Positions 3,938 to 59,914 of a stretch of DNA of 64,000 nucleotides are shown piece after piece. The DNA comes from an uncultured Nitrososphaeraceae archaeon (GTDB taxonomy: Archaea > Thermoproteota > Nitrososphaeria > Nitrososphaerales > Nitrososphaeraceae): contig CAVXZB010000042.1 in the NCBI GenBank assembly GCA_963765895.1, forward strand, positions 1 through 64,000, read 5' to 3'. The notes beneath the pieces are model-generated. The model was given only the letters and a program-made list of their open reading frames with translations, ran no database searches and had not been told where the DNA came from. The position numbers and the translations under genes were made by a program. Every line of letters begins with the position of its first letter. Position 1 is the stretch's first letter.

Positions 3938-5145
3938 TATGGAAATACAAGTTTTATAGTCAGACCACAAAGGTTGAGTAGTGTGCTTCTTGGGGCATAT
4001 GCCCCTTAGCTGCAAGCCATCATCTATCACTTATCGGCAGGTTTTTTTCATTCTTTCCGGTGCATTTTGCAAAAATAGGCCTCGTCATAGATGTCAGGGT
4101 ATCCATAGTGCTATATTGGGTTCTACATTATGCATTAAGCTGATGACATGCTTTTTTTGCAGCATCGTCTCTCTTGCAGAATGAATATGGTACTATGGAT
4201 ACTATGGATACAATATTACTAAAGACTTGAGCGTGAAAATCTAAGAACATAGATAACAGAACCTAATCCGTCAGGGTTGATTTTCTATACATGAGCAACG
4301 ATAAAAAAAGAGACAAGATGTCTACTTATAGAAAAATCCTAGTCTAAGAAATTGAGTTCACCAGTATTGCAATTCAGGCTGCAACATTTTCTGCCCGTCC
4401 TCTATTTTATACATATTGGTGAATCTGACTCCTTTTTATATTGTTCGCGTAATTGTATACTAGCACTTGGCTACTTATAGTATCCACGAAATTGGAACAG
4501 TAAATACATATGAATTTACAGCTTGGTTCTGGTGTTGGAGTGATATCTGTTTAAATGTCTTCGTGTGCATGAATGACTTGTAGTCCTGTAACTATACGTT
4601 TATCAAATTAACTTTTTTACTGCTCAAAGATAGATTCTAGTAAGCCAAAACAATGTTGACAACCTTCCTTATCTGCATGTTTCTGAACCAGATCAAGTAG
4701 TTTAAGCAAATCATTCATTACCTCATTTTGGTCATTAACTTTAATGGTGGTGGCATGATTTTCTCATTTTCTATATCAGTCATTAGTTTCATCATTGGAA
4801 TGGTGATCAATGGTAACCTGCACATACGCCTTGCTTAGCCTCTGCATTTAGCAAGAGGCGCAAGGTTTTGCGCCTACCCATGTTAACAAAAGTCTAACCT
4901 CTTAATGACTTCTCCATATTGATAAAGTCCTATTAAATGTTCTAATATTCTATAAAATTGTTTTATAATAAACAAAAACATATTCGTTCTGTCTAATTCT
5001 ATCATTGTAAAAGCATGGATTATTTTGGGGCAAACCAATCAACTCTCTAAAATCACATAGAGGAATGGTATAGGTACAATGTATTAATGGATTAATATGC
5101 GATATTTTAAATTAGGCGCAAAAAGTGAGAATATAACATCTCATC

Positions 5146-6478
5146 ATGAATGCCCTTGAGTCATATAACAAGATTTTGCATTTAATGAAAGAACACCACA
5201 CCTGGTTTGATAAATCTATACCTCTCATCGCCAGTGAAAATATACCTAGCACTGCAGTAAGAGAAGCAATAATTTCTGATTTCGGCAACAGATATGCCGA
5301 AGGCTGGCCCGGAGAGAGGGTATATGCTGGATGCAAATACATAGATCAAGTGGAGATTAATTTGTAACGATTTGGCGAAGGTCGTATTTGGAGCAGAATT
5401 TGCAGATTGTAGAGCAACTTCGGGTGTAGTTGCCAACCTTGCTATTTATGCTGCATTTTCCAAACCTGGTGATTATATGCTAGCATCATCCATTCCCTCA
5501 GGTGGTCATATTTCCCATGGTAAGAAAGAGCATTCGGGTACAGCTGGGCTTGTACATGGATTAAGTATTGAACATTACCCCTTTTCAAAAGAAGAAATGA
5601 CTATAGATGTGGATGCTACGAAAAAGAAAATTGAAGAAATGTGTAAGGATAACAGAGCTCCAAGTATAGGAATGTTTGGTGGTAGTCTATTTCTATTTCC
5701 ACATCCTGTAAAGGAATTGGCAGATTTTATGCACGATCATAATATGTATATAAACTACGATGGGGCGCATGTTGCGGGATTGATTGCTGGAGGTCAGTTC
5801 CAAGATCCTCTAAAAGAGGGAGCAGATTCAATCACTATGAGCTCACACAAAACGTTGTGGGGTCCCCAAGGAGGAATTATAGTATCACTACAAAAATATG
5901 CTGAATCTATCAAGAAGGCAGTATTTCCTGGCATCACAAGTAGTCATCATCTGCATCACGTTGCTGGCAAAGCTATTGCCCTAGCTGAATCATTAGAATT
6001 TGGAAAAGATTATGCAATACAAGTGATCAAAAATGCCAAAGCTATTGCAGGGGATTTAGCTAATTTAGGGTTCGATGTTCTGGGAGAAAAAAAAGGTTAT
6101 ACAGCATCGCATCAACTTGCGGTAGATGTTTCAAAATTTGGTGACGGCGGTACAATAGAAAGAGATTTGGAAAAAGCTAACATAATCTTAAATAGGCAAT
6201 TACTGCCCGGAGATATCAAAGCTGGCAGGCATTACATGCATCCTAGTGGAATAAGGATCGGGGTTCCAGAAATAACAAGATTAGGAATGAAAGAAAGCGA
6301 AATGAAAGAAATTGCGAATTTTATTAAACGTGTGGTAATAGATAAACAAGACCCCAATTCTATAGCAAATGATGTGACAGAGTTCAGAAAACAATTCCAA
6401 AAAATACATTATGCATTTGATAATGCTGTTGACGCGTACGAATACATAGATGTCATTCACCATCGAAAAGCAAGTTAG
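5146..6478 (+). CDS. glyA: Serine hydroxymethyltransferase, one frameshift near 5357
   Basis: [55 protein letters not shown]; deleting one A in gtggagattaatttgtaac gives [10 protein letters not shown]. Confidence 0.95.
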
Positions 6479-6943
6479 TCGAATTAATTGAGGAGGAATT
6501 AACATGAATCGTCTGGTAAGGCACCATGAATGAACATCTAGTCAGTTCACATATAACATACGCGAAAGTCTAAATTCCCTATATTTTTAGCCGATTGTCT
6601 AATGAAACTACAAACTTGACAATATTAGCATTGTCACTATATTCATAGTCTTATGGTTTGAATTAATCTCACTGATCAGTTAAGTAAAATTCTCTAAAAT
6701 AAATAAAAAGATTAATCCGCTATCAATTTTAAAGCATTAATTGATTTCTAAGATTGTAAATCAGTATAAGATATAATTGCGACAGCTGCTCCTGATCCTA
6801 CATCTTCCATAACCCATCAGTATCATCATAATCATAAGATTTTGATTATTTTTCTAAAACCTGTTCGTTCCTAATTGTGGAAATTCATAAATTTGATAAA
6901 GATTACATTCCCTAAATTTATTTATTAATATGTTGACGGAATG

Positions 6944-7255
6944 TTAATCTGAAGTATATTCAACGCATCGATAATATATCAAGCCATTTATTGTAATGTC
7001 CTCTATTTTGGCCATTGTGAGTTTTTTGTCGATACGATCAGATTTTTTTGATATTAATCCCGCCGTAATATTACTAAATAACTCTGTCAAGCCGAGTTTA
7101 ACCATTGCATGATTGACTTCATCTTCTTTTATCCCAATCGCGTCAGCAATTTCCTTTGCTGAAAACCCCTTTCCTTTGTTATGACACAAAAATTGAATTA
7201 TCACCATATTAATATTTTTGTGCGCATCAAATTCAGCTGCATCTATCGGTGCCAT
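6944..7255 (-). CDS. Small winged-HTH-like protein
   Basis: IIQFLCHNKGKGFSAKEIADAIGIKEDEVNHAM helix-turn-helix pattern. Confidence 0.6.
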   Translation of the reverse strand: MAPIDAAEFDAHKNINMVIIQFLCHNKGKGFSAKEIADAIGIKEDEVNHAMVKLGLTELFSNITAGLISKKSDRIDKKLTMAKIEDITINGLIYYRCVEYTSD

Positions 7256-7439
7256 AATATATGATTAAATGTACTCATATAACAAACATACTGTTATACC
7301 ATTATGTAACATGTAATATAAAACCAGGTTTATTAGTTGGACTTTTTTCGAAGATTTTATAGGAGATATTAAAAGATCTGACATAATATATATTTCCTAA
7401 ATTGAAATATCGTATAAATATCAAAACTGTTTATTATAA

Positions 7440-7865
7440 TCACTTTTTGTATATGTACTCTTCAATTTTATGTAGTTGAATGTGATGATCATCTGAAACT
7501 TTGATAAGTTCTTATAGATAGAGCGAATTTACTTGATGTAACTTCAAATTCTTTACACTTTTGTATGTATCTACGATCAATTATGCGGATGCGTCTGCAT
7601 CTATGTTCTGCTCGCGTAGCAATGTCATAGTTCGAAAGCAATGGCACATTGAGCCGGAGAAAGACCAGCAGAATTCAATACTTTTTGATAACTCCCGGAG
7701 TGCATCCACTTCGGATTTTCCAAAAGCAATACTCTAATCGTTAATAATGTTGCTAACTGATCCTGCATCTATGTTGTTGTCCTGTGCTATAATGTCTCTG
7801 CGAAGGCCTAGAAGCCATTGACTTATTACTTTCGATTTTATTGTTTCAGGAATAACTGCTGGCAT
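7440..7865 (-). pseudogene. Degraded paralog of the HTH/coiled-coil gene at 14704
   Basis: Manual translation MPAVIPETIKSKVISQWLLGLRRDIIAQDNNIDAGSVSNIIND*SIAFGKSEVDALRELSK...FRTMTLL...KCKEFEV aligns by eye with MALSFSKPLKEGIIKDWLRGKNRDTIAHENGLSTGTVSNIV; several stops and frameshifts. Confidence 0.75.
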
Positions 7866-7927
7866 ATTAATATCTACTACATAAAAAAATACATTAAGAA
7901 TATATAAAATGTCTTTTATTTAGATGT

Positions 7928-7990
7928 GTCAAATAAACAGTCAAATGGGTCAAATACGTCCTCAAATAGTCTTGTCAAATTGCGTCAAAT
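7928..7990 (-). promoter_or_regulatory. Array of six ATTTGAC/ATTTGAG heptamers upstream of a TATA-like box
   Basis: gtcaaat starts at 7928, 7940, 7949, 7974, 7984 and ctcaaat at 7961; TTTATATA on the minus strand ~7901-7908. Confidence 0.7.
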
Positions 7991-8221
7991 GGCATTAGAA
8001 CATTGAATACATATTTCTTCAACTATGTGATCTAGATTAAATGCAGGCTCAGCCTACCTTGAAGACGACAGCCTAGGTGAGTCGAAGATCCAAATATCCG
8101 GGTAATAAAAACTTACTGAATATCTGTTTGATGCGCAAAGAGTAAACCAGCCAGATATCATTGCCTCATAGAATATAATGAATTAGAGATGGATAACTCA
8201 TCAAAGACTCATTAGCATATA

Positions 8222-8818
8222 TTGAACATTATTGAAAATACAGATATGAATAAAGAAAATATATATTCTGCAATTGAGAAAAAAGTAAATGAAGAATATT
8301 TTACTGGGCAAGTTACTTTACGAGAGATCTTTAGCGAACAAGTACATAATGAACAAGAAATGTATCATGTAACATTTCATAACGGAGCAAGAACCACATT
8401 ACATTATCATGAATCGGATCAAATACTTGTTGCCACGAGTGGAAAAGGAGTAGTTGGTTTAATCAAAGGAACAAAGGTTAGCAATTTTGAAATTGACGAA
8501 AAGGATATAATATTTTTTGAAGAAGAGGGAGATACTGTTTACATACCAGCAAACAGATTACATTTTCATGGTGCAATTAATGGATCAAGTGGTAAAGGAG
8601 ATTTTTCACATTTGGCCATAAGAAAAATGTATTTAAATAATATAACACCGGCCGTCAAGGCAAAAAATGAATGGGAATATGATCTAATTGCAAAAGAAAT
8701 AGGAAATAAGGATCCTGTAATCATAAAGCAAATCGCAAAAAATATTTCAGAGAAGATTCAAGCAGCTATATTAATGAGATTAGAACGAGAAAAAAATAAA
8801 CCTAATAGTTTATCATAA
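8222..8818 (+). CDS. Cupin-domain protein
   Basis: VTFHNGARTTLHYHESDQILVATSGKG and GDTVYIPANRLHFHGA cupin motifs. Confidence 0.85.
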   Translation: MNIIENTDMNKENIYSAIEKKVNEEYFTGQVTLREIFSEQVHNEQEMYHVTFHNGARTTLHYHESDQILVATSGKGVVGLIKGTKVSNFEIDEKDIIFFEEEGDTVYIPANRLHFHGAINGSSGKGDFSHLAIRKMYLNNITPAVKAKNEWEYDLIAKEIGNKDPVIIKQIAKNISEKIQAAILMRLEREKNKPNSLS

Positions 8819-8943
8819 TTAGTATTATTTCCCTCTTGGATCGCATGATATTTTCTTAACGACCATATTGAAGTACCTTTGATATTCTTCATCCTATTTC
8901 CAAGTTTACTAAATTAGAAAAATAAGTGGATCACAGAATAAAG

Positions 8944-9876
8944 TTAACAGTTGACAATTACCCTTACCGACGCTCCAATGCATGTCGATCCCATTTTGCA
9001 TTCGTCGGCAGCTGCTTCATATGTGCTCTGCAGGAATGAGAGCAAGACATCATCAGGTGACTTTGCGGTACGGACCACATTGTAAGGTAAGACAAACTCT
9101 CTCATAGTAGTATGATAGAATGCCTCTGGTGGTTGTAGTTGGTATTCCGTAAAGCCCTTAGGCTCTGGATAAGCATATGAGTAGAAGATTGGTTCATCAA
9201 TAGGGCCGCCTCCTGGCCAGAAACCGCAACTACTCACTTCGTGAGAATAAGCTTCTACAGCTACAAATCTAGCCAAGTTTGGCGCACCCGGATGAGCAGG
9301 CGCGGGACGTCCTGAAAAGCGTGTGACAGCCAGATCAAAAGCTCCCCAGAAAAAATGGACTGGACTAACTTTGCCGGTAAACCTGCAACGAAACTCTGTA
9401 AACACCCTGCTAGCCTGAGCTAGAATACGCCAGAATCGCTGGGCATAGTTGGGATCATATGCAGAGTGTTTTTGATCCTTCTCAAATGGAATTCGATCTG
9501 ACACTTCCACAGGTGTGGTCCAAATGGTTAATGGCATTCCTAGCGATCCTAGGGCTGCCATTACTTCTTTATAAAAATCGGCTACTGAGCGAGGCCTGAG
9601 AACGATTATCTTGGTAGACCCATCAGCAGTTTCGATTATTAGTAGGTGATCGATGAAATCAAAGTTTATTTGAAATAATCGACTGTTGTAAGACATAGCT
9701 GATGTCGTGAGTCCCCTAGGTGATACATACAGGGTAGAATTCCACCAATGATTTTCTAGATGAGTTAGTGCTAGTCTGATCTTGCCGACTATTTGGGTCC
9801 ACATGTGCAATGTTTCATAGGTGTCTTTCCATTCTGCTAGCGGCAATTCTGGCCACAGATTTGTTGTAGTTGTCAT
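8944..9876 (-). CDS. DUF5996-like protein (C-terminal frameshift; likely true stop ~8964)
   Basis: WPELPLAEWKDTYETLHMWTQIVGKIR, SPVHFFWGAFDLAVTRFSGR, YSHEVSSCGFWPG; alternative frame gives AKWDRHALERR*. Confidence 0.8.
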   Translation of the reverse strand: MTTTTNLWPELPLAEWKDTYETLHMWTQIVGKIRLALTHLENHWWNSTLYVSPRGLTTSAMSYNSRLFQINFDFIDHLLIIETADGSTKIIVLRPRSVADFYKEVMAALGSLGMPLTIWTTPVEVSDRIPFEKDQKHSAYDPNYAQRFWRILAQASRVFTEFRCRFTGKVSPVHFFWGAFDLAVTRFSGRPAPAHPGAPNLARFVAVEAYSHEVSSCGFWPGGGPIDEPIFYSYAYPEPKGFTEYQLQPPEAFYHTTMREFVLPYNVVRTAKSPDDVLLSFLQSTYEAAADECKMGSTCIGASVRVIVNC

Positions 9877-11032
9877 TTCGTTAATTCCCTATTATATCGA
9901 ACTGAAACGCCTTGCAATAAAAAACAATAGCTCTCAATCCAGAGAGTTTCGTTATGAACTGAAATAAGTTTTGTTAATCGAGGCTCAGGGACATGTTTCA
10001 TATTAATATATTACAGAATAAGATATGTAAGAATTTATTCATGAACAGGTATAGCGTAGTGTAGGGAGATGTTCATGTATATGTATATAATGTTTGGTCA
10101 TGATAAAAGGTTATACCGGATATTCTAGAAAAAACAAACGAATGCTTATGCGATACTTTATATGTTTGTTACATTTGCAATTGTCTATACTAGGCGACTA
10201 GGTCATCGTCAAACACTAGCCATTACATGGCGGCTTCAAGTTTTTCCCACTAACATCTGCTTAAGCCAGCAACAACTACAGAATTAACTCGAATTCGAAT
10301 TTTTTACTGATATCTTCAGTTGTCTTCAGCTCATTCTGGAATACGGTTATCTATATTAGACAAGTTACTAACTTCAGTTATGGTGCATATTACCTGTTTT
10401 TCATATGACGTAAATGTATCAATGTATCAATTGTTGCAATTTGAATAGTTGGTTCGCTCAAATAATAGGCCAAGTGTTTTTATCCTGACGATCTCTTCTT
10501 TCTCGTTTAACAAGACCTCATCTTTCTATCTAGTAAATACCGTAAACTATATCCATTTGCTGTAATATAATAAAATATTATTTACTTCCTTTACTAGAAA
10601 TTATCGAATTCTGATCGAATCAGGATATGTTAATCTTCTAAAGGCGCATCTAGACTGTCATCTAGGTAGTGAAGGCCAACAAATTCAAAATATGGCATAC
10701 TAGATTTTGAAGAACAAGCCAACTCTGAACTCAAATCGTTGATTGTTGATCTAAGTACCAGAAATACTGAAATCGTGCGGCGGCAAAAATGGTCCGTGAT
10801 TTTATGTGGATCAAAATGCAGATAGACTAGTTGTATATAAATAAAAAAGACAAGATTTGTTTATTATAGTCACTAATACCACCATTTCGTATCAACCGAG
10901 TATGTTTTGTGACTATCAGGAGCACTACTTTTAGTTATTGACAAACCAGTCATCTGTAAGGTGTTCCAATGGAATAGTAATACTAGACTAAAGTCACCTT
11001 ATGAAAATATACGGGTTAGTTAATATAATAAT

Positions 11033-12236: not shown

Positions 12237-13812
12237 GGAAATTTAAAAGGAACTCGCAAGATAAAATTGTATCAGTTCTGTATTAGTGCATAATATGCAC
12301 TGGACAGGATTACACCAATGGCTTAGCTTGTAAAGGGCCATCCATAGCAGTGATATCACATCTATTAATAATCTTGTCTAGTATGATTTATTTGCCTATG
12401 ACTTATCCTCAACGAAAATACAATCTAGCAGTATATATTTACAACACAAACAGATAACCGTTATGACAATCCAGCAGTCTTAGAGGATATCTACTATCTA
12501 TGATACAACCGACTAGATTCAATTAACCAATATATGAATCGAACAAGTCATTAAATGATGCATTGTAGATTCAGAAAATTTAAAATGAGTGATTTCTAAC
12601 TAGGAAATTAATTTATAAATATAATTAAGCATATATGGTAGTTTGTAGCTTAGGAAAAGACTACTAATGCTTCAAATACATGTACATAGTGCATATAGCT
12701 ACTATAATAGGGTAAATTAACTCATTATTTTATGAACTGTGCTGACTATCATAATGTTTCATGAAGTCAGATTCACTTTCAAATGTTGAATTGCATCTGC
12801 TACACAAGACAGGTTCTCCACGTGTATCTCTACTTGTAGACATCAATATTTATTTAAATATAACATCATTATTATAAATATCAAATAATATACAATATTA
12901 CTGGTTTGGAGCAGATGATCAGATCTACCTTAAGTTATCTGATCAATCTTCTATCCCTTTCTATTTGTGCCTATTATCCCACCTGTAGCGCGTCCTTCTG
13001 AATACAATATTTTTCACAAATTATTAGATAGGCATAACCAGTCAATTATTAGATTGGATCTAGAAGTATGAGATCCTAGGAGGAGATACACTGCTGATAC
13101 AGGAGTGTAACCCACATTTAAAGGAATCTATTCATGTATCATTAGGATAGTCAGCACATTCATAAATCAATGAGATTTCACCTTATAATAATGCACTATG
13201 ATACATGAGATTTAAATGGTTGAACTACTAAGAGAAGTTGTATGATATATTTCTTCTGAGGGATTAAATGATATATTCTTCTGGAGGGAGGTAATTAACA
13301 TTAGATTCATGTTACCTCCAAAAAGTGAGCAATTAATAAAAACTCCGTTAACTAAAGTATTATCACTTCGTTCGAATAAGACCAGGGGTGCTAACGAGTC
13401 TGGATTTTTACTGGTGGTGATGATCCAGACTTTAACGTAGGCGGCATTTTGACTAAGTTGCCGCCTAAATCCTTTATCATGCACTTACTATACTATCTAA
13501 CATATTCCTATTAAATACAAAAGCGTTTAAACAGATAGTTAATAGGTTGATTGATTTTGACGAATCTATGTTAATGGGTATGGATTCAACCTAGATTCTA
13601 TCACTTAATCCTTACCGGGTTGAATTCCCACCAATGAGAGCTCAAAAACATATAAGAAGAGATAATGTATTATTATGAGTCCTAATCGTGCTGTCGCTGA
13701 CGGTGCTGTGTAAATGGATTCAGTCCACAATCCACCCTGTATCATGGGACTGAATCTCTATCAGCGACCAATTTTTAACTTACATTTAAATATTTTAGCC
13801 AGATGAATATGG

Positions 13813-14425
13813 TTGATGTCGATGTGGGATCCAAACATGGATACTCTCTACAGTTGGGCTCTTGACTATCCTAAACCTAAATCGATATCATCAAGTCTAG
13901 AAATGGATAGAGAGAAATTAATTGAGATAGTAGATATGGTTAATTCGTGCATTAGCAAAGAATTTGAAAAAGATGGACATGCATTTAGGGTTATAAAAGG
14001 GCGTGATCCTACAGCCGAAGAAAGACCAGACATTCATCCACTAATCAGGGAATATGATCCTCTTAGAAAACAAGTATTGCTAGAGTGTTTCAAACGATGT
14101 CTACAAATCGAAATTGATGAAAAATATAAGCTAAACCTGTCCCTTAGACTTTGGGCTGGTTGTTTGGATGCTGCAAAGACACTATCACTAAAGACTCAAT
14201 CTGGACCAAACACAAGAGAAATAAGAAGGTCAGTGTTTACTGAGAGGATAGATATTCTTGCATCTAAGGATCCATGTTTATAGGAAAGGAGTGGAAATCG
14301 CATGCATGTGGCGACCCGATCCTACTATTTCATTTGACGGCGTCCATGGCGCATCGCCTGCAAGAAGATATGAAAAAGATTGGATTAGAAGAAAAGGAAC
14401 AAGACAAGTGAAATCTTGCGAATAA
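13813..14425 (+). CDS. Hypothetical protein, probable frameshift near 14275
   Basis: 156-aa ORF continues in another frame as YRKGVEIACMWRPDPTISFDG...KSCE*. Confidence 0.5.
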
Positions 14426-14610
14426 TAAAAGCGATCCAATAGTACAGACGTTTCTTTGTATTCTATACAAATCATTAGTGACTTATCATTATAAGTGAAA
14501 ATTTCTGGGCAATATCATGTTTATTACTTTTATTTTAGTAGTATGTACTTGTCGGTTACTGTTATAAGTAATGTCCAACTATTGCTAATATAGAGTAACT
14601 ACCATATTCA

Positions 14611-14676
14611 TGACACAGATGACCAGGATTTTGACGCAATACATGACGTATATGACTAAAGAAAAATGATAAATAC
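14611..14676 (+). promoter_or_regulatory. Five phased TGAC motifs followed by BRE/TATA-like gaaaaatgataaata
   Basis: TGAC at 14611, 14620, 14632, 14644, 14653; TATA-like box ~30 nt before ATG 14704. Confidence 0.6.
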
Positions 14677-14703
14677 TGCGTTACCTCACTAAAGACCATA
14701 GTA

Positions 14704-16375
14704 ATGGCATTAAGCTTTTCTAAACCTCTAAAAGAAGGCATCATAAAGGACTGGCTAAGAGGTAAAAATCGCGACACTATAGCTCATGAGAACGGTCTGA
14801 GTACGGGAACAGTTAGTAATATAGTAAAATGAGTGGAAAGAAGAAATAGGAAGTTTATCAGCAGACCAGTTAAGAGAATTTGCAGTTACTTTACGAAATG
14901 TTGGTATTTCACCTTTGCAATGTGGACAAGGTTTTCGAATACTAAACATTTTATGTGATCTAGGATTTTCTGAAGATAATATAGAAATGTTTGCACTAGA
15001 CGTATGCAAGATGTGTAAAAATATTGGTTTAATGCCTGACAAAATTGCACTGCACATTAAAGAATTAATAGACCTAATAGAAAAAGTACCTTTAGACCAG
15101 CTTTCAGGCCATATAGAAAGGAACAAAATAATGCTGGAAGAATCAGAAGAAGAGCTTAGAAATGCTAAAGTGCAATTAAAAGATACACATGCTGAACTTG
15201 ATAATGCCTTTTCAAAATATAACTCAAACTCAAACATATCAGAAATTAGATGGACACACTGGTTAAAAAGAGAACTTGCAGATCATGGTCTTGAATTTGA
15301 TAGTATTCCCGCATTGGTAAACACCATCGAAGATATCCACACATTAGGTTTTGACGCCAAAAAAATAATCTCCAAGGTTTCTGAAATAGACAATTTAGAA
15401 ACAAGGAAAAATGCTCTCAAAGTTGAGATAACGAAATTGCAAAAAGAGCAAGAAAGACAAGCTATAAAGCTAGAAATGCTGAAACAAAGCTCTTCTACAC
15501 ATACACAGGCAATCTCTGTATACGAACAGCTAGCCTCTATGGGATTGGGGCTTGGAGAACTGACCATCTTGGTTAATACTATTACAGAATTAGCTAAAGA
15601 AAATGGTATTTCAGAATCAATGGCTGTTAACAAATTCCTCGATGATGTTACACAACGGTATAAGTATATTAGCGGTTTTGAGTCTAGACTTGAAGAGCTA
15701 AAAAATGAGACAGAAGATACAGAGTCTGGCCTGATAATATTACGTCAGTCAGGTTCAGAATTGGACAAAGTCACAGATTCATTGAGAAAACTGTGGGCAA
15801 TGGGCATAAAGTCTGAAGATATTATAGATCTAGCAAAGGCTCCAGACAAGGAGATCACAGATAATGTTAATTATGATAACAGAGCAATTAATAATAATGA
15901 AACTATTCCATCAGATTTGAAAAAGTATCGAAATCTTAAAACCGACATCGAGGATTTGAGTAAAGCCAAGGATGAATTGATAGCAGAAATGGCATCTCTT
16001 ATGTCAATAAGACAGTGCCTTGCGGCATCAGTAGTGTCATCTACCTTTAGAGTCTTTCAGTATCTTAATTTCATGGTTGATGTTATTAAATGCACAAGAG
16101 TACAAATTCAGGTACATGTTTTGCATTTGTATTTGTATTTGCTATATCATGAACCACCTATAATGTATAACAAAGAACAAGAATTAAATATAGACAAAAT
16201 ATCAATTCAATCAGATAATTATCAAAAATTCTTACCATTTATAGATGCTGCAAACGGCGATGATATTGAGTTTAGGATACTGAAGAATGTGTTAATTGAT
16301 GCTATTCAAATTGGATTAGATAAACTGAAGTCTAGTAACAGTCAGGGTAGAGATAATGATAATAGTACCTACTAG
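14704..16375 (+). CDS. N-terminal HTH plus long coiled-coil protein (frameshift ~14829; C-terminus may extend to 16446)
   Basis: ATG 14704 gives WLRGKNRDTIAHENGLSTGTVSNIV; removing one A from gtaaaatgag joins ORF 14915-16375, which is rich in heptad-like E/K/L runs. Confidence 0.75.
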
Positions 16376-16694
16376 TACCTACTACTACGATGGTTGCTTT
16401 AAACCAAGCAAAAACTGTATTAGGACAGTTCCAGGAACAAATCTAATTGTTAATGTCTTACCTGTTCTATTATCAAGAACACTTTGTATCTTCACTCTCC
16501 CAGTACTATACTCATTTGTATTTTATCATTATCCGTTGCAGTTTAATCATTATATTTGTTAGACAATCCTTACTGACTGGCTGGGATCTTAGCATAAACA
16601 GCAGAAGATACTATTCAGTTATTCTTCGTCTTATTGATACTAACAAAAAATAGTTTATGTAAAACTTTTGTTGTCTACTTGGTTATTTCAGATT

Positions 16695-16850
16695 TTATGC
16701 AGGTTCTTCAGACTCATCGCCAGTATCAGTTCTTTCTGCGGCTTCTTCACGTAGACTCTCCGATGGGCCAGTAGTTTGCGGGTTAGAACCTGCCTTTCCT
16801 ATCTTTTTTTGGTCCTTCTGTGCTGAATCAAGATTTTCTTCATTACTCAA
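16695..16850 (-). CDS. 51-aa hydrophilic (hydrophilin-like) protein, not in the ORF track
   Basis: TTG start; MSNEENLDSAQKDQKKIGKAGSNPQTTGPSESLREEAAERTDTGDESEEPA*. Confidence 0.55.
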   Translation of the reverse strand: MSNEENLDSAQKDQKKIGKAGSNPQTTGPSESLREEAAERTDTGDESEEPA

Positions 16851-17481
16851 TTGTATCGTAATTATATTAATCATTATAGTTAATAGCGATTATACATTTT
16901 ATTATCAAATGAGTTATCTGCAATGTCATCATCTAATCTAACGTAGTAGAAAGTTAGAAAACTTCAATTCCGAAGTAACTATAAATAATAGATTAATATT
17001 ACAAAGTTTAAAAATAGAGGATATTACGAATAAACGTTAGCTTCATGAAAGTGGGTCTTCTCTTCAATCTAGAATTTGCCATTTGTAGTTTTCTATCATC
17101 GAATTCGTCATCTCATCCGAATAATCATTCTCATTATCCAAATTATCTCTATTTTTGGATTCAGTCTTGTTCCTCATAGGTAAAGGTCTTTTGAATGTTT
17201 AGTATTATTTCTATTTCTATTAAGTTATAAATTTAAGAGGCCAATTATAAAAGACTGATACAATAAACAAGTTATTTAGATAAATTAAATTATAACTATA
17301 TTCAAATAATTACAATTTTTTATTTGTTTATTGTATAATAAATTAAATAAACTAATTCAGAATTTATTTTAGATTCACTCAACGAGACAAGAATATTACT
17401 AAGAAATGCAGATTCGGAGGAAAGGAAGTTCTTTTTGAATGTAAGAATAATATATCATCCTGTTCATATTAAATCAGCAGA

Positions 17482-17715
17482 ATGAGTAATAATACTGACA
17501 TGAATCATAAGAGCGCTCCAAGTCATTGGGCTCAAATAATGGGTGAGATTGTAGACAAATTTATGGGTACCAATATGTCTACTACAATTAGCTTTGATAA
17601 TCTTGAAATAGAGGTTCCACAAGCAAAGGGTCCTAACGGTAAGGATCTAGGTAGTGCTAAATGGGTAATTAATGGTAAAATACTATGGACATCTGTTGCA
17701 TCCAACAAAGAATGA
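17482..17715 (+). CDS. Hypothetical protein
   Basis: 77-aa ATG ORF, co-oriented with the next gene. Confidence 0.6.
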   Translation: MSNNTDMNHKSAPSHWAQIMGEIVDKFMGTNMSTTISFDNLEIEVPQAKGPNGKDLGSAKWVINGKILWTSVASNKE

Positions 17716-17829
17716 TAAAAAAAGATAGGCATATTCTATCAGAATATTCATTACAACTGGATGCCCAAGACGACCAGAAAAAGGAGCGAATCGTAACTAC
17801 ATTAATGATAGTAGATAGATAGATAGACT

Positions 17830-18258
17830 ATGGCAGATAATGATAATAATGACAAGACTGAGCAAATAATACTAGAGTTGCTTGCTAAATCACTTAAAAC
17901 AGTAAAAGGTGGTGCAATTGATGTTGACATGGAAGGGCAATCCGCACTCAGGATAGAAATGGATAAAAAAGAAGAAAGGATAAGTATTGATTTTATTCAC
18001 CCTACTGTTATCCAAATAGCAGAATTGGAAAGCGAAGATAGGAGCGGATTATTTGATAAATTAAAAACCGCAAAAGAGTTTTCCCATCAGCTTACCGATA
18101 ATGGTTTGACATTGTCGTTTCTCAGAAAAGGAAAAGAAGCAATAACCTTAGGAAAAAAAGCTCATCCTACACTTTCAAAACTGATAACAAGAAGTAATGA
18201 TATACAAGTAGATAGCGTAAGAGAATCCATTAAATTGGGTCGTGATCTAAAAAAGTAG
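17830..18258 (+). CDS. Hypothetical protein
   Basis: 142-aa ATG ORF. Confidence 0.65.
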   Translation: MADNDNNDKTEQIILELLAKSLKTVKGGAIDVDMEGQSALRIEMDKKEERISIDFIHPTVIQIAELESEDRSGLFDKLKTAKEFSHQLTDNGLTLSFLRKGKEAITLGKKAHPTLSKLITRSNDIQVDSVRESIKLGRDLKK

Positions 18259-18940
18259 AGAACTAATGCATTCTATAACTAATTATTAACTAGAAATGCT
18301 TCTCCAAGAAACGATAAACATGGAACAAGACTAAATAAAAATAACTTCAGTTTTTTCGAGGTTTAGTCCTACTCTTATTATTAATAATCATCCACCTTTT
18401 CTTGCCATTAGGATTCGTCGGTATCTCAATTTTGTTTACTTCCCTACACAATCTACAATAATATCGCCATGACAAGCATTTGCCTGTAGATAGTGGATCA
18501 CATAATCTATTTAGACTTGTAATATTTCATCAGATGCTGAATTGTCATAAACGGAGACATTTATGGGTACTAGACAGCCAGTTTTAATATTGATTTAACT
18601 CTAAACATATTATTAATACTAGCAATTAATTCTTGAAATATCTACTACAATGCCTAAAGCTTTTCAGATACTTCGAAAACGTGATATTGATTTGATCTTT
18701 AAAAGGTCATATTTGCGATAAAACGGCAAACCAGAATAGTTAAAAAGTAGATACTTCTAAGATGCCAGAAGCTAAAAGTCGTGAAAAGAGGTCTCCCAGA
18801 ATTAGATACAGAATTTAAGAAGTTAGTACAACTAATAATCCATATGCAAACACCAGGTGAATAAAGAAAACCATTCTTGTAAAATTTCTTATAGTCTGAC
18901 TGCTGATGCGCATATAAAGGGTTTTGTACAATAACAAATA

Positions 18941-59491: not shown

Positions 59492-59914
59492 TTACTTTCC
59501 ACCTGTCATGAGATTACCTAGACCCTTAAGACCTCCTCCCACTGTTTTGCCAAGGTTTTTCAGAACTCCACTTCCAGCTTTTGAAACACCGCCAGCTACT
59601 TTTGACATATTATCGCTAGTTGCTTGACCTGCCTTTGACATATTACCGCTAGTTGCTTGACCTGCCTTTGACATATTACCGCTAGTTGCTTGACCTGCCT
59701 TTGACATATTACCGCTAGTTGCTTGACCTGCCTTTGACATATTACCGCTAGTTGCTTGACCTGCCTTTGACATATTACCGCTAGTTGCTTGACCTGCCTT
59801 TGACATATTAGCGCTAGCGCCAAGTACCGACGAAGTAGCGCCTGCAGTAGCAACCAAAATGCCCAAGGAGGCGACTATAGTTAGGAGTAACATGTTGGAT
59901 TTGATTTTTGCCAT
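59492..59914 (-). CDS. Secreted/surface protein with 11-aa tandem repeats
   Basis: Signal-like MAKIKSNMLLLTIVASLGILVATAGA, then NMSKAGQATSG x5 plus NMSKAGQATSD. Confidence 0.8.
   Translation of the reverse strand: MAKIKSNMLLLTIVASLGILVATAGATSSVLGASANMSKAGQATSGNMSKAGQATSGNMSKAGQATSGNMSKAGQATSGNMSKAGQATSGNMSKAGQATSDNMSKVAGGVSKAGSGVLKNLGKTVGGGLKGLGNLMTGGK
59601..59810. repeat. 33-bp coding tandem repeat, six copies plus partial
   Basis: tttgacatattaccgctagttgcttgacctgcc head-to-tail, no spacers. Confidence 0.95.

Follow-up and report, generated by a model that had tools for sequence, protein, structure and literature searches.

A family of helix-turn-helix and coiled-coil genes preceded by phased TGAC rows in Nitrososphaeraceae

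Two arrays and their genes in the window

The window, by which we mean the whole 64-kb stretch of DNA analysed, carries two homologous genes (29% identity over 143 aa, E 1e-4), each preceded by an array of short direct repeats built on TGAC and by a TATA-like box. The first-pass annotation had drawn attention to these two loci; both arrays lie at the coordinates it gave, their spacings are reproduced and a TATA-like box stands near each of them. The features are the following:

14611..14656, plus strand: array A, predicted binding row of the downstream protein, five TGAC units with spacing 9,12,12,9
14657..14675, plus strand: A-rich BRE-like stretch and TATA-like box, the latter being GATAAATA at 14668-14675
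14704..16446, plus strand: helix-turn-helix (HTH)/coiled-coil gene of about 580 aa, with extra bases at 14832 and 16369/16378 that are probably assembly errors
14704..14847, plus strand: three-helix HTH (aa 1-48), resolvase/homeodomain-like according to the model of a homolog
14578..16491, plus strand: unit of array, promoter and gene, 96.5% common to contig C66, with different flanks, both right flanks being present in public runs
7928..7990, minus strand: array B, five TGAC units and one TGAG unit with spacing 12,9,12,13,10
7901..7909, minus strand: TATA-like box of the paralog, from the sequence
7443..7865, minus strand: truncated, stop-bearing paralog of subfamily B, beside glyA

The TGAC units of array A start at 14611, 14620, 14632, 14644 and 14653, and their offsets from the ATG are preserved in 70%-identical homologs. 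Array B reads as six ATTTGA(C/G) units on the minus strand (TCAAAT at 7929-7985), and the words TTTGACGCAAT and GACGTATnTGAC, reported as common to both arrays, were located in each. Clusters of at least five TGAC, with gaps of up to 22 bp, number two in the window and occurred in none of 60 order-3 Markov simulations; by coordinates, array A is one of the large clusters of the window, the other being a coding tandem repeat at 59603. Since the count itself is not tied to coordinates and the tandem repeat is among the large clusters, the family-wide control given below is the stronger one. The 59603-59804 repeat has a 33-bp unit with TGAC every 11 and 22 bp, is apparently coding on the minus strand and is unrelated to the family. 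Two short non-coding repeats were also observed, at 12930-13050 with many matching places in another genome (G005), and at 13489-13572, recurring in the genome assembly to which the window belongs (G000), including just downstream of the C66 copy. A word at the left end, CTACCATATTCA, was considered and showed no tie to the family.

The gene at 14704 had been presented as needing repair. It is indeed split in the assembly by a single extra base at 14832, but three soil runs gave short-read contigs without this base, and the contig of one run covers 14458-14979, including the upstream flank unique to the locus, with a difference at one other letter; the frameshift thus probably arose in assembly. 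Likewise, the bases inserted at 16369/16378 do not occur in the two best short-read runs, which may be the window's own source, and contig C66 carries an intact copy, 97% identical to the window gene. The paralog at 7865 had been called broken, and in the assembly sequence, to which this description applies, it ends at about 7443 and carries stops. Congeners also have a family gene at the glyA-adjacent locus; a link to glyA across genera was rejected, the orientation being different in G050. The glyA gene itself occupies two frames (5146-6478), split near 5367 by what is probably another assembly indel.

Protein, row and recognition word across the family

The family is large, unnamed and undescribed in the literature searched. 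A search of G000 by tblastn found 14 start regions and one 3' piece, and TGAC units lie within about 150 bp upstream of all 14 start regions, three times on the opposite strand. Independent loci are fewer, about nine, because near-identical contigs carry several of the copies as twins; 12.5% of the bases of the assembly have a twin of at least 94% on another contig, which suggests mixed strains. An N-terminal profile matched 128 of 238 Nitrososphaeraceae genomes, with 1-21 matches each and 669 in total, and 8 in a phylum-wide sample of 401 genomes, six of these lying outside Nitrososphaeraceae. The full-length profile gathered 656 clusters (50% identity) at E under 1e-30, the Atlas search gave hypothetical Nitrososphaerota clusters only and a scan of genome contigs returned one locus. 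Beyond weak HTH and coiled-coil matches, none of the curated families among the matches listed fits; no plasmid or phage match was found, nor any viral contig with the patterns used. The literature search, which did not cover subscription journals, found no description of the family, and none was seen in three related studies (PMC6563490, PMC4158269, PMC5120986).

The protein has the predicted architecture of an N-terminal HTH followed by a long coiled coil. Modelled at full length, an intact paralog is helical throughout (pLDDT 73), a pTM of 0.22 making this model no guide to domain packing, and aa 1-135 of a homolog were modelled with a pLDDT of 86.7. For aa 1-48 the best fold match is the HTH of Tn3 resolvase, with a Z of 7.1 and an rmsd of 1.5 over 46; the score is moderate and indicates an HTH in the model and nothing further; HTH_23 is found in 17 of 32 members. 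Fold searches returned nothing past the HTH, and a PDB sequence search gave weak coiled-coil-like matches and no others. In the tail, short helix-Gly-helix knuckles separate long heptad helices, three of which have a hydrophobicity of 0.83, 0.92 and 0.73 at heptad positions a/d. The family is under purifying selection, with a median dN/dS of 0.19 for aa 1-135 (253 pairs) and 0.32 for aa 136-330 (205 pairs), the pairs being not independent in either set. A count of intact copies (101 of 164) was set aside, since it lumps together short members, duplicates and assembly indels. No transposase or catalytic family was recognized in 24 full-length members among the 25 of 57 Pfam and 25 of 33 NCBIfam families listed, and no Rep, primase or helicase family among the Pfam and NCBIfam matches listed. 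An SMC-type ABC ATPase head is likewise missing from the full-length model, which contains no strands; the SMC-type matches among those listed are weak and consistent with coiled-coil similarity. Two members (P0077 and P0119) carry an extra C-terminal domain of discoidin-like appearance.

The row proved to be a trait of the family, as the first-pass annotation had proposed for the pairing of protein and repeat. Removal of near-duplicates reduced 126 starts to 103 distinct homologs, of which 75 have at least three TGAC within 300 bp upstream (68 forward, 7 reversed), against 20 of 2,280 control ORFs, all from G000, and TGAC ranks first of all 256 4-mers upstream of homologs. In a held-out set fetched afterwards (80 metagenome loci, 50 of them distinct with enough upstream DNA and mostly of one subfamily), 45 of the 50 have at least three units and the remaining five have two.

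The arrays had been described as phased at about one helical turn per unit. This does not describe the actual pattern, in which steps of 9 and 12 bp alternate to give a period of 21 bp, or two turns. Adjacent spacings are concentrated at 9 (87), 12 (97) and 11 (18) with none at 14-17, pair distances peak at 21 (89), and the successions 9-12 and 12-9 occur 39 times each, 9-9 being outside the 15 commonest. Long members have forward rows of this alternating type. In 58 of 95 rows, a gap of 4-7 bp separates the last TGAC from the best TATA-like box (11 bp in array A), and the 3' flank of the last unit is GAA-rich. Members of a short-protein clade (about 170-310 aa) have reversed rows with an 11-bp period, lying about 60-265 bp upstream; these being limited to that clade, row geometry tracks protein clade. 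Distant members (L129-L132) have TGAAC rows. A coding reading of the row was rejected because spacings of 11 and 13 disrupt the frame, although in some copies a frame stays open across the row. A divergent gene as the target of the reversed rows was rejected as well: a divergent orientation was found for 17 of the 29 ORFs lying nearest upstream, but the ORFs fall into 20 clusters. The promoter rows of L106, L111, L119 and L177 (G069) are homogenised tandem arrays of 20-29 units, for instance (TGACGGT)n.

The repeat word covaries with the protein encoded beside it. Scoring of the short clade required at least 250 bp upstream, which left 85 rows and dropped eight for short upstream DNA. With Arg at one position of the recognition helix, 9 of 11 rows read TGGA, as against none of 74 with another residue; among those dropped, L205 (Gly) contains both words and, scored as TGGA, would have been a contrary case. 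The two Arg rows that keep TGAC are L255, which is mixed, and L263, and 16 non-Arg rows have other words or none, some of them (L197, L214 and L231) being clean rows of another word. The genomes G234 and G180, on which one row and part of the tallies depend, are unpublished. A contact between arginine and guanine is the textbook reading of such a change. Both types occur within single genomes (G054, G007, G055 and G079) and both states at one syntenic site (L080 and L086 versus L090), so that a single host factor is not an easy explanation. The Arg/TGGA rows belong mostly to one clade and occupy three places on a quick tree; their monophyly is rejected at p-AU 0.045 for a group named after the tree was seen, with p 0.11 once the long branch L090 is left out, and independent origins are only weakly shown. 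No residue is clearly linked to the TGAAC word among the distant members L129-L132. Other short-clade rows are homogenised to GGCTTT, GCCAAA, GCCGG or forward GACAGA (L197, L214, L224, L231 and L269), and no matching residue change was seen there.

A proposed mechanism and its parallels

Because the word covaries with the recognition helix, the covariation points to self-recognition by the cis-encoded protein, and binding of the protein to its own row appears probable from the sequences compared. We propose that the family consists of solo cassettes, each made of row, promoter and gene, and that the encoded protein likely occupies this row cooperatively and thereby likely regulates its own transcription, a reading to which we give a probability of roughly 0.65. 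The N-terminal HTHs would read (A/T)TTGAC(G), and would be paired by the coiled coils, a dimer thereby spanning two units at a spacing of 9 bp. The next dimer would start 12 bp further on, laying a strip of protein along one face of the DNA in a 21-bp register. A filled row would most likely block TFB since its last unit meets the BRE, and repression at the cassette's own promoter is, if anything, favoured over activation. In the short clade, where rows are reversed and about 60-265 bp upstream, simple occlusion of TFB is impossible. The tail of 300-450 residues may then extend away from the DNA, tethering it or linking copies to each other; this is the least supported step, a doubtful one guessed from the plasmid protein KfrA. 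RNA-library contigs of relatives span the ORF, though they could stem from DNA.

KfrA is the closest working model, showing the same logic in an unrelated protein. As described for plasmids of the IncU and IncP groups (RA3, RK2 and R751), it combines an N-terminal HTH with a long alpha-helical tail, has no ATPase and binds, at its own promoter, an operator made up of some five short repeats, with a tightness that rises with repeat number (PMC7783346). The family shares the HTH, the long helical tail, the lack of an ATPase and the short repeats at its own promoter. It differs in showing no homology (hhalign against RA3 KfrA gives a probability of 0.8% over 38 coiled-coil columns only), KfrA_N (PF11740) being over cut-off in none of five genomes and at no family locus. 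It is moreover chromosomal, multi-copy and solo, without KfrC, IncC or KorB; its units are 4-5 bp cores phased 9/12 or 11 instead of abutting 9-mers, and its tail is interrupted by the repeated knuckles. The earlier remark that this pairing had not been described thus stands for the family in the literature searched, but not for its logic, which the non-homologous plasmid KfrA shares as far as that source describes it (PMC7783346).

Archaeal regulators offer a second parallel, and with it the best surviving alternative, namely that the row is a self-activating switch on which the protein recruits TFB/TBP, as EarA or TFB-RF1 do, positive feedback producing the long helical protein in bursts. 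In Methanococcus maripaludis, EarA binds several short direct sites immediately 5' of the BRE/TATA and activates its target operon, rows just 5' of the BRE being typical of archaeal activators in that account (PMC5512572). The family rows are likewise short direct repeats directly before the BRE/TATA, and stop just short of the BRE in 58 of 95 cases, a geometry similar to that reported for activators (PMC5512572, PMC4158304). They differ from the EarA system in that the single gene behind the row is the protein's own. Against activation, the GAA-rich 3' flank of the last unit is the BRE itself, making overlap likely, and the short clade has its rows in reverse orientation, well away from the TATA box. 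A self-activating switch is possible, but we hold it to be the less probable reading.

The archaeal partition adaptors SegB and AspA are also site-specific binders with a site upstream of their own gene, AspA spreading along DNA (PMC5120986). The position of the row is comparable; their sites differ in being palindromic and in serving proteins with ParA/ParB partners, those of the family being direct repeats without a recurring partner. Multi-site anchoring without an ATPase can nevertheless be envisaged, in which each cassette would resemble a point centromere on which the protein polymerises, and the 1-20 copies, their word codes kept distinct by a single residue of the helix, would organise or segregate the chromosome of soil ammonia-oxidising archaea. 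We regard this extension as unlikely.

Genomic setting, mobility and significance

No partner recurs within 8 kb of the 49 wide loci apart from generic kinases and IS genes, and in particular no ParA, integrase or Rep; none recurs at the 80 metagenome loci either. Pfam analysis of the 121 nearest neighbours among 682 ORFs at the 49 loci gave no recurring partner and a single ParA-like protein, although a motor could act in trans. Flanking integrases were seen at 3 of the 49 wide loci and at 1 of the 80 from metagenomes, and a tRNA was called in 9 of the 49 wide loci. None of the 14 copies in G000 lies within 8 kb of a called tRNA, one having an 18-bp tRNA-like match. The family resembles the cryptic integrated elements of Thaumarchaeota (PMC6563490) in that a few members, L184 and L007 among them, stand beside a tyrosine integrase, and differs from them in that an integrase, an att-tRNA and replication genes are all missing within 8 kb of most loci; the term 'coiled-coil' is absent from the main text of that study. 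In L184, from a complete genome outside Nitrososphaeraceae, positions 4924-10663 hold an integrase, a wHTH-like gene, a small Cys-rich ORF with a TGAAC row inside its 3' end, the family gene, a small ORF and a ParA-like ATPase. This arrangement possibly represents the ancestral setting. The family probably descends from integrated elements and has settled at many chromosomal sites, where some copies are old fixed loci.

These data bear on a further alternative, a non-autonomous mobile element in which the row would be the end site of a transposase or recombinase and the gene its cargo. In its favour, matches number 1-21 per genome in unrelated neighbourhoods, near-identical copies have sharp edges (96.5% and 98.6%), and a short-clade cassette (L004, at about 8284) interrupts a tiny ORF that is whole at four homologous loci in three congeners. 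Against it, the row stands at a single end, old fixed loci exist and neither terminal repeats nor target duplication were seen by eye at the A-type and short-clade junctions read, which are rearranged; the suggestion that the unit might be self-mobile finds no support at these junctions. The window copy and the C66 copy, both A-type, have their flanks swapped in a congener assembly (L277 and L282 of G004 against window 12500-18500 and C66), and both loci are older than the split from the congener. Recombination or conversion between copies, or a mis-join, thus accounts for the sharp edges without transposition. Part of the displaced empty-site sequence of L004 lies on another contig near a twin copy. 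The interrupted ORF is presumably zinc-finger-like, judging from its Cys/His pattern. Altogether a mobile element seems quite improbable.

Elements encoding MCM helicases form a separate set of repeats in G000. The MCM genes of C59:22700-26460, C25, C26, C27 and C61 (L009-L012) end in triads of the 9-bp word TATCTGAC, with inverted non-coding copies nearby, and another MCM family (C1, C3 and C33) has TGTGAT-type repeats; these repeats look like origin iterons. The least probable alternative, that the row is read in trans by another factor such as those of MCM elements, the cassette being a relic of such a replicon, draws on the resemblance between TATCTGAC (102 units in G000) and the family unit ATTTGACG, which have the TGAC core in common, but the triads are spaced 9,9 instead of 9/12 or 11, occur in 38 of 238 genomes of which 7 have no family match, and are missing from 97 of 128 family-bearing genomes (many incomplete), an MGE-type MCM lies near only 1 of 49 loci (and there beyond a tRNA) and none of the 80 metagenome loci, and the word follows the cis-linked gene within a single genome.

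The family sits in the dominant nitrifying archaea of soil and has neither a name nor a solved relative. It provides a natural recognition code from residue to base, with paralogs as internal controls, its strict phasing rules predict the shape of the complex, and cultured family members make the system testable. The organisation and segregation of archaeal chromosomes are listed as an open question (PMC5120986); if the tail tethers DNA, the family would bear on these processes in soil ammonia-oxidising archaea. If the protein only regulates itself, the family would represent an unusual, near-selfish autoregulated cassette maintained under purifying selection.
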